Origin: Eledone cirrhosa | Taxonomy: Eukaryota | Assembly: GCA_964016885.1 (NCBI GenBank) | Contig: OZ024743.1 | Span: 83,762,001 to 83,826,000, forward strand | Direction of reading: 5' to 3' | Length of the DNA: 64,000 bases | In this document: piece by piece, positions 51,971 through 53,987 of the stretch | How the letters are laid out: each line of letters opens with the position of its first letter | How positions within the stretch are numbered: the first letter of the stretch is position 1 | Notes under the pieces: generated by a model | What the model was told of the DNA's origin: nothing | What the model saw: only the letters and a program-made list of their open reading frames with translations | Database searches by the model: none | Translations under genes and position numbers: made by a program

Positions 51971-53987
51971 ACGGGAAAAATGAAACGAAATTTCATTTCT
52001 CACTCTTAGTACGGCTGTTACTTAAATTTAAGTATGTATACGTACATAAATATATGTATACAGACGTACAGTAGTATGTGTATATATATATACATACATG
52101 CACACATATATATGTACGTATGGATTCACCGAACATTTATTATAATGCTCGGTGTGTTTGTAAACAAACAGCCCGAATTAAGCCGTACAGTGTCTAGCAA
52201 CCATCGTTGCTCATTTGTTCAACACTGACAAAGGAACGCTGTACTAGTTTCAAGCTTATTAGCTATAGTCAGCAACGTATACCTTCCTGCCAGATGATTG
52301 AACGTCTGAAAGTATATACTTTCCTTATGCATATTAACGGCTGAGCAGCCTAATTTGCATATCGAGTGAGTTAATCGGCCGGGGTACCGAAAACGATAAA
52401 CAGAAAAAATGAAACGAAATTTCATTTCTCACTCTTAGTACGGCTGTTACTTAAATATAAGTATATATACGTACATACATATATGTATACAGACGTACAG
52501 TAGTATGTATATATACATACATGCACACATATATATATGTACGTATGGATTCACCGAACATTTATTATAATGCTCGGTGTGTTTGTAAACAAACAGCCCG
52601 AATTAAGCCGTACAGTGTCTAGCAACCATCGTTGCTCATTTGTTCAACACTGACAAAGGAACGCTGTACTAGTTTCAAGATTATTAGCTCTCGTCAGTAT
52701 ATATATATATATATATATATATAAATGTAAGTATGTATGTATACGTACATACATATATGTATACAGACGTACAGTAGCATGCATATATATATATATATAT
52801 ATATACATATATACACATATGCATACAGGTACACATACATATATGCACGCATCAGTTTAGTTCCTGACACAGGAACGATGTACTAGTTTCAAGCTTGTTA
52901 GCTATCATCAGCACCATTTACCCATCTGCCAGATAGTTGAACGTTCGAAAGTATATACTTTCCTTATGAAAATTAACGGCTGAGCAGCCTAATTTGCATA
53001 TTGAGTGAGTTAAATCGGTCAGGCATACCGAAAACGATAAGTTGAAAAAAATGAAAACGAAATTTCATTTCTCACTCTTAGTATGGCACTTACTTAAATG
53101 TAAGTATGTATGTATACGTACATACATATATATATACAGACGTACAGTAGCATGCATATATATATATATATATATATATATATATACATATATGTGTCAG
53201 TGTTGAACAAAAAGGTGACGTGGTTGCCTTAACACCGTATGGCATAAATTCAGGCTGTTCGATTTGTTGACAAACAAACGAACAAAGCAGGCGTTATAAT
53301 AAACGTCGGCTAAACTGATGCGTGCATATATGTATGTGTACCTGTATGCATATGTGTATATATGTATATATATATATATATATATATATGCATGCTACTG
53401 TACGTCTGTATACATATATGTATGTACGTATACATACATACTTACATTTAAGTAAGTGCCATACTAAGAGTGAGAAATGAAATTTCGTTTTCATTTTTTT
53501 CAACTTATCGTTTTCGGTATGCTTGACCGATTTAACTCACTCAATATGCAAATTAGGCTGCTCAGCCGTTAATTTTCATAAGGAAAGTATATACTTTCGA
53601 ACGTTCAACTATCTGGCAGATGGGTAAACGGTGCTGATGATAGCTAACAAGCTTGAAACTAGTACATCGTTCCTGTGTCAGTGTTGAACAAAAAGGTGAC
53701 GTGGTTGCCTTAACACCGTATGGCATTAATTCAGGCTGTTCGATTTGTTGACAAACAAACGAACAAAGCAGGCGTTATAATAAACGTCGGCTAAACTGAT
53801 GCGTGCATATATGTATGTGTACCTGTATGCATATGTGTATATATGTATATATATATATATATATATATATGCATGCTACTGTACGTCTGTATACATATAT
53901 GTATGTACGTATACATACATACTTACATTTAAGTAAGTGCCATACTAAGAGTGAGAAATGAAATTTCGTTTTCATTTTTTTCAACTT
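51971..53987. mobile_element. Candidate retrozyme array: 429-bp and 481-bp monomer variants, direct and inverted
   Basis: Period 429 (51981/52410) and 481 (53193/53674); HHRs 52236-52278 (-), 52875-52917 (-) and 53628-53670 (+); fragment at 26450-26505. Confidence 0.85.
53628..53670 (+). ncRNA. Minimal type I hammerhead ribozyme
   Basis: ACGGTG CTGATGA TAGCT AACA AGCTT GAAAC TA GTA CATCGT. Confidence 0.8.

Follow-up and report, generated by a model that had tools for sequence, protein, structure and literature searches.

A non-coding hammerhead retrozyme family of Eledone cirrhosa bearing the insertion footprint of Penelope-like elements

Two insertions within one microsatellite

The window analysed in this work, a stretch of 64,000 nt from the Eledone cirrhosa genome, contains at positions 51832-54021 approximately 2 kb of one repeat lying between two (TA)n tracts (Table 1). 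The locus consists of two separate insertion events within a single microsatellite, an older copy of a U·G subfamily followed by a younger copy of a G·U subfamily, both terms referring to one wobble pair of hammerhead stem I. The older insertion has its 3' end at one of two fixed sites described below (the tail site, E1) and is truncated at its 5' end within the second ribozyme. The younger insertion is built of a forward arm joined head to head with an inverted arm that has an internal skip of ~108 nt at 52863/52864, the inverted arms being 98% complementary over 333 nt. Repeat spacings at the locus are 429/425 nt for the short variant and 481 nt for the long one; 365 of 424 monomer positions align between the two variants, and the long variant has 57 extra bases, 38 of them within the TA-rich tract. 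No ORF of at least 150 aa was found across 51971-53987, the RT and GIY-YIG ORF of an autonomous Penelope-like element (PLE) being absent, nor was there an LTR pair in this interval, which shows tandem and inverted arms instead.

Table 1. Features of the retrozyme locus (positions within the window; dot, no strand assigned)
Feature	Position	Strand	Details
(TA)70 target microsatellite, left flank	51832..51971	.	TRF
Older insertion, U·G subfamily	51972..52697	-	1.7 units, 94% alike
Type I hammerhead motif	52236..52278	-	Stem I ACGTTG/CAGCGT, U·G subfamily; core CTGACTA (52272-52266); predicted cut before 52241
Truncated hammerhead	52661..52697	-	Core CTGACGA; stem I 5' arm lost; one stem II mismatch
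(TA)13 separating older and younger insertions	52698..52723	.	
Inverted arm, younger G·U insertion	52724..53192	-	3' end at the no-tail site (E2)
Hammerhead in inverted arm	52875..52917	-	Canonical core CTGATGA (52911); predicted cut before 52880
Forward arm, younger G·U insertion	53193..53987	+	1.65 units of 481 nt, 99.7% alike
ATGCAAAT octamer, candidate promoter element	53546..53553	+	Copy comparison
TATA-like palindrome	53584..53597	+	Exact in 20/46 copies; a portion is missing from some of the U·G subfamily
Canonical type I hammerhead, extended stem I	53613..53681	+	Stem I 53628-53633/53665-53670 (ACGGTG/CATCGT); core CTGATGA (53634-53640); U·U at stem II base; palindromic stem III 53658-53663; predicted cut before 53665
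Optional 59-nt tail, bounded by the fixed 3' ends E2 and E1	53929..53987	+	
(TA)17 target microsatellite, right flank	53988..54021	.	

A motif scan of the window revealed four hammerhead-type motifs at the locus, three on the minus and one on the plus strand, all of them containing the ACTAGT palindrome; the Rfam hammerhead models gave 0 matches in the window at gathering score. The two stem I sequences and the palindromes are as the first-pass annotation of this DNA had read them, and so is the location of the ATGCAAAT octamer upstream of the hammerhead on the same strand. The family displays the type I features, i.e. the CUGANGA, GAAA and NUH elements of the core, three helices and an open stem I, from which the copy at 52272 departs at G8 (G8-to-U); according to PMC11167929, the anole PLE ribozyme is no longer cleaved when this nucleotide is mutated. 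This altered core had been proposed as a trait of the short variant, a view that the wider data do not sustain: CTGACTA occurs in 60 of 25,411 genome-wide matches, the second short unit of the locus reads CTGACGA, and 108 of 115 sampled ribozymes have either CTGACGA (76) or CTGATGA (32), with other cores in the remaining 7. CTGACTA is a sporadic change private to the window copy and not a subfamily trait.

The explanation first offered for the locus held that the elements target their own internal TA tracts and that an inactive short and an active long subfamily coexist. Monomers do contain TA-rich tracts and the two copies adjoin, but their junction lies in the flanking (TA)13 by the truncated 5' end of the short copy, so that the long copy missed the internal TA tract of its neighbour. 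Among 96 loci there were three pairs of neighbouring arms in the same direction, the host copy continuing on both sides in 0 of the 3, and no clear nested case; (TA)n is also the target of PLEs unrelated to the family, and the low frequency of CTGACTA speaks against an inactive short subfamily. We give this explanation almost no credence.

Subfamilies and the ribozyme fold

Exact matches to the core pattern number 25,411 in the 3.0-Gb genome, on many contigs, as compared with 0 for the reversed control, and the motif is therefore not a product of chance. The exact young G·U ribozyme is present in 10,329 copies and the commonest exact U·G form in 5,281; matching pieces in three contig runs amounted to 5,340, 1 and 0. 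A sample picked by position (the first 100 matches on contig 1) yielded 55 loci, 5 overlapping ones having been dropped, with 115 ribozymes. Each sampled unit carries a type I hammerhead in tandem, which is the tandem organization expected of non-LTR retrozymes. Unit spacing ranges from 419 to 503 nt in U·G arrays (median 424, 23 spacings) and from 456 to 538 nt in G·U arrays (median 479, 34 spacings), with another array at 442. The 429- and 481-nt variants initially distinguished do occur as spacings, and these figures are points in a spread of unit lengths, not fixed sizes. Genome-wide matches, sampled ribozymes and the tree all bear out two subfamilies of one retrozyme, and support a single type I hammerhead family divided into U·G and G·U forms.

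Over the 115 ribozymes, which include a few truncated copies, the stem I pair that distinguishes the subfamilies is U·G in 57, G·U in 41, A-U in 11, C-G in 2, U·U in 2, A·G in 1 and U-A in 1. Exact U·U copies number 210 genome-wide, counted like the U·G copies in one sequence background, the G·U copies being counted in another. A midpoint-rooted tree was built from 46 loci, 9 of the 55 lacking intact flanks; in it all U·G and C-G copies form one clade with support 98, and U·U and G·U copies lie at its base. The pairing-preserving change in stem I on which the earlier reading was built is real, and it consists of a single wobble pair swapped between U·G and G·U in one event that, to judge from the U·U copies, probably passed through a mismatch. 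Taken alone the swap is weak evidence of selection, being a single event, and two random changes leave every pair intact with a probability of 4.8%.

Covariation across copies had been anticipated as well. Within the family both sides have changed in only 2 of 22 pairs, which is not above the level of shuffles (331/500), and a distal stem I pair is broken in 8 of 34 distinct copies. At 53621/53675 (A1 columns 19/73), a distal position of stem I, the U·G clade has A-U, intermediate copies have A·G and the youngest subfamily has U·G, a distribution that may represent a second compensation.

The comparison that did reveal covariation is with a sister family, which is 75% identical (277/369 positions), has 2,614 candidates genome-wide, and was first met in locus L158 (638-1032) and then in loci L197-L226. 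Its hammerhead has stem I ACAGTC/GATTGT, stem II GGGT/ACCC, a GUU cut triplet, A·A at the stem II base and the palindrome ACATGT in place of ACTAGT; its copies keep the octamer and end near the same CTTACAT motif. The sister family is the older one, and as it has G·U at the distinguishing stem I pair, U·G is the derived state. Relative to the U·G form, 12 of 26 helix positions differ in the sister ribozyme, 6 of 13 pairs having changed on both sides and 0 being broken; 36 of 2,000,000 random placements gave 6 two-sided changes without a broken pair. In a pairing test on 51 copies (25 of the family and 26 from the 30 sister loci, 43 of them distinct) 97.1% of cells were paired, as against 24-42% in partner-slid controls. 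This covariation amounts to one deep split between family and sister, which counts as a single event, and one shallow event besides. Selection on the ribozyme fold, as earlier proposed, is supported by the sister-family comparison and not by the stem I pair initially cited for it.

A co-fold of two copies has their palindromes pairing with each other, and a palindrome whose centre is unable to pair within a hairpin would fit cleavage as a dimer. Dimer cleavage is reported for amphibian retrozymes in PMC7229834, but among Xenopus retrozyme dimers only 1 of 9 was cleaved in vitro according to bioRxiv 10.64898/2026.07.22.740005. The circular fold energy of the monomer (-164, against -107 +/- 6 for shuffles) was set aside, its value being inflated by the self-complementary TA tract.

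The ATGCAAAT octamer is exact in 41 of 46 family copies and 21 of 29 sister-family copies; it would arise by chance in 3.3% of monomers and survive 75% identity in ~10%, and with such weak statistics it may be regarded as a possible promoter. Work on newt satellite 2 ascribed to Coats et al. (1994) reportedly offers a precedent for an octamer upstream of a ribozyme. That satellite is likewise a hammerhead tandem repeat, with a reported internal promoter of snRNA type (cited in PMC2220036), whereas the promoter here is a candidate without an identified proximal sequence element.

Fixed ends, inversions and the inserting machinery

Arms were mapped onto the monomer, leaving out those shorter than 100 nt or below 80% identity. 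The 3' ends in the 55 loci (n=92) fall at positions 313-326 (38), 257-271 (38) or elsewhere (16), 76 of the 92 being confined to two windows that make up 6% of the monomer, with peaks of 31 at 267 and 27 at 325. The two fixed sites, E1 and E2, lie 59 nt apart. A TA-rich flank follows 70 of the 76 fixed ends compared with 4 of the 16 other ends, the background being 7%. The 55 loci contain 26 head-to-head inversions, and the full set of 96 loci contains 47. The adjacency of the two variants with the second one inverted, singled out at first reading, holds in the 333-nt arms, and given this frequency the inversion is routine. Where both ends of an inversion could be classed (30 cases in the 96 loci, two rows being a duplicated locus), 29 pair E1 with E2, one has E2 twice and none has E1 twice; the 17 inversions with an unclassed end include that of the window, whose E2 end was hidden from the script by the ~108-nt skip.

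At the opposite side the ends are scattered, and an arm can traverse as many as 11 ribozyme sites. Within ~5 nt of the predicted cut lay 0 of 154 5' ends (2.9 expected) and within ~12 nt 6 (7.7 expected), a comparison limited by every sampled copy having been selected for a whole ribozyme. The genome thus carries no cleavage footprint, and since arms cross ribozymes without stopping at the cut, the template was either a circle or an uncut multimer. The family combines the traits expected of a PLE passenger: 3' ends fixed at internal sites, the tail being optional, truncation at the 5' side, an adjacent inverted copy and a microsatellite as target. Its footprint is the 'tail and inversion' signature of PLEs.

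The traits given for PLEs in PMC8557442 are truncation at the 5' end, partial tandems, an inverted copy at the 5' side, a tail of 30-40 nt at one end and a (TA)n bias. For a purified PLE, PMC11167929 reports cleavage of the two strands of AT-rich DNA and initiation at two sites within the RNA, between which the tail lies. As EN+ PLEs of the Neptune/Naiad type are presented in these two sources, the family resembles them in 5' truncation, partial tandems and the inverted 5' copy, and it shares with EN+ PLEs the optional tail at one end, the (TA)n bias and a type I hammerhead near the 3' end (PMC8557442; PMC11167929). Unlike them it has no ORF, and its tail measures 59 nt instead of the 30-40 nt given in PMC8557442.

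Elements of this kind also lie in the window itself. A 5'-truncated copy of an abundant element ending in GIY-YIG occupies 12780-13735 on the minus strand (GIY-YIG fragment 13184-13735), and a ~5.5-kb PLE is found at 54150-59632, also on the minus strand and 130 nt from the locus, with frameshifted RT and C-terminal GIY-YIG frames, a C-x4-C-xx-C linker, a 3' end in (TA)n and terminal repeats 96-97% alike that have their own hammerhead core; its candidates number 31,284 genome-wide. The labels 'PLE' and 'Neptune-like' are our assumption from visual inspection of motifs and from general traits of the clades, and in a Pfam search of the window PLE frames GIY-YIG scored 18.5 bits, below the cut-off. 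The autonomous element with C-terminal GIY-YIG represented at 13184-13735 has 35,342 candidates, and its 3' region contains a hammerhead-like core. In 30 of its loci, 17 ends have a tail of 57-58 nt and 21 do not, nearly all in (TA)n, and opposite-strand pairs of tail and no-tail ends occur at five loci, of which three are probably duplicates. As its tail is unlike that of the family in sequence, this element shows the kind of machine and not the partner. Two PLE families, with 30 loci each, were searched in their 3' regions for terminal sequence shared with the monomer and none was found, the resemblance to the monomer being restricted to places where separate copies occupy one microsatellite. 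Tblastn of the window PLE frames against 130 loci returned no continuous link to a partner, and neither the family copies nor 30 sister-family loci have a shared coding 5' flank.

We consider it likely that the family is a non-coding non-LTR retrozyme with a conserved hammerhead fold whose insertion is due to the RT-endonuclease of a TA-targeting PLE. Tandem copies would be transcribed, perhaps from the octamer/TATA region; with a weak palindromic stem III the RNA would be cleaved as a dimer of two ribozymes, and monomers would be ligated to circles. The PLE protein would then nick (TA)n on both strands and initiate one cDNA at each of the fixed sites; these two cDNAs would run round the circle or along the uncut multimer and be joined at their truncated ends, leaving an inversion. 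The window may be seen as the record of two such events, first the insertion of a U·G copy, whose core mutated later, and then that of a G·U copy.

Arrays with units 99.5-100% alike occur at unrelated loci. Higher-order arrays (two of the loci L116, L161 and L162-L164) have alternating units, the alternates near identical and the neighbours 3-4.5% apart, and a 50-unit array shows a 4-unit period across ~17 units. The terminal stretches of (ab)n arrays are nearer to the alternate unit (2-3 vs 8-9 mismatches), yet more diverged than internal units. Higher-order arrays could reflect either multimer RNA circles or duplication at the DNA level, and the mosaic and higher-order patterns make it probable that amplification at the DNA level later lengthened some of the long arrays.

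An alternative would keep the PLE-mobilised passenger and replace the template by an uncut linear multimer, with circles not involved in insertion and the ribozyme kept for another step or for protein-bound cutting. Such a template agrees with the lack of 5' ends at the cut site and with arms crossing as many as 11 ribozymes, and in PMC11167929 the anole PLE used mainly unprocessed RNA in vitro and ribozyme mutants had no effect on insertion in vitro. Arrays of nearly identical units at unrelated loci fit instead rolling round one monomer, and circles are shown in PMC7229834 for coral, mussel and axolotl retrozymes. The linear template is compatible with both of these counterpoints and differs from the reading preferred above in the template step only; we hold it as a tentative, rather unlikely alternative.

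A more far-reaching version of the preferred reading joins several assumptions: a retrozyme without kinship to its helper, a PLE that would recognise the shape or spacing of the ~59-nt tail, an own promoter of octamer type, dimer cleavage through paired palindromes, and two simultaneous cDNAs made into (TA)n from monomer or multimer RNA circles. This combination is doubtful as a whole. If true, it would make the 25,000 insertions an in vivo record of two-strand, two-site priming by PLEs and of rolling-circle reverse transcription, in which the (ab)n arrays would have been copied from heterodimer circles.

Twin priming anchors one arm only. It is at this point that an explanation by LINE twin priming with an AP-endonuclease encounters difficulty, as the arms of an inversion are here both anchored at a fixed 3' site, one at E1 and the other at E2, with no poly(A) tail. 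Spread at the DNA level as a minisatellite, the other way in which the ribozyme could be a mere passenger, leaves fixed ends in new (TA)n sites unexplained. The window does contain an ORF resembling a LINE AP-endonuclease (6648-7685, minus strand, 345 aa, read by eye), long arrays point to amplification at the DNA level and no PLE partner was matched; even so, we regard either route as very unlikely.

Known retrozymes and neighbouring elements

Judged by its sequence, the family qualifies as a non-LTR retrozyme. Like the metazoan retrozymes of this type treated in PMC7229834, it consists of non-coding tandem repeats with one type I hammerhead per unit and thousands of copies, and with the axolotl retrozymes described there it shares two ribozyme subfamilies of differing unit length (330/350 nt in axolotl), a one-pair stem III with palindromic tetraloop (Amex1) and U·U at the stem II base (Amex2). 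As axolotl shows the same pattern, the subfamily split is ordinary. The family, known here from sequence, departs from the retrozymes of PMC7229834 in its units of 420-540 nt (170-400 nt there) and its internal TA-rich tract, and, as far as those are described, in a strict (TA)n target with tail and inversion.

Mobilisation of animal retrozymes by PLEs has already been proposed, on the grounds of shared ribozymes, co-occurrence and terminal homology (PMC7229834; bioRxiv 10.64898/2026.07.22.740005). The derivation of vertebrate retrozymes from PLE pLTRs put forward in the latter source implies the same relationship as that proposed here; as presented there it relies on co-occurrence and pLTR homology, whereas our case relies on insertion anatomy, pLTR homology having been sought and not found. 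In the open main texts of the literature we found no report of tail and inversion scars on a retrozyme, or of this family, relatives of which may be listed in supplements. The family provides a PLE insertion footprint directly on a retrozyme, countable in depth, and the rule of one tail per inversion (29/30) bears on two-strand priming by PLE proteins; the 10,329 identical ribozymes of the young subfamily imply that its helper was active recently. The useful parts of these data are the insertion footprint and the sister-family covariation, the stem I pair that first drew attention being minor.

Other small elements with hammerheads surround the locus. A second retrozyme-like family is represented at 45517-46490 of the window by 2.8 copies of a 310-nt unit with an inverted arm, in (TA)n. 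Its type I hammerhead, on the minus strand, has U·U at the stem II base and the palindrome ACGCGT; the family was also found in other loci examined. The three palindromes ACTAGT, ACATGT and ACGCGT constitute a natural test set for dimer cleavage. A short element with a hammerhead-like core next to (TA)n is present in two inverted copies (45372-45508 and 51235-51371) that are 88% alike. Homology of the main family to the 310-nt family, to the repeat of the neighbouring PLE and to the element at 51235 is confined to the ribozyme core. To the left of the locus, at 51372-51788, lies a MITE-like foldback element of ~410 nt, its arms 92% complementary over 107 nt.
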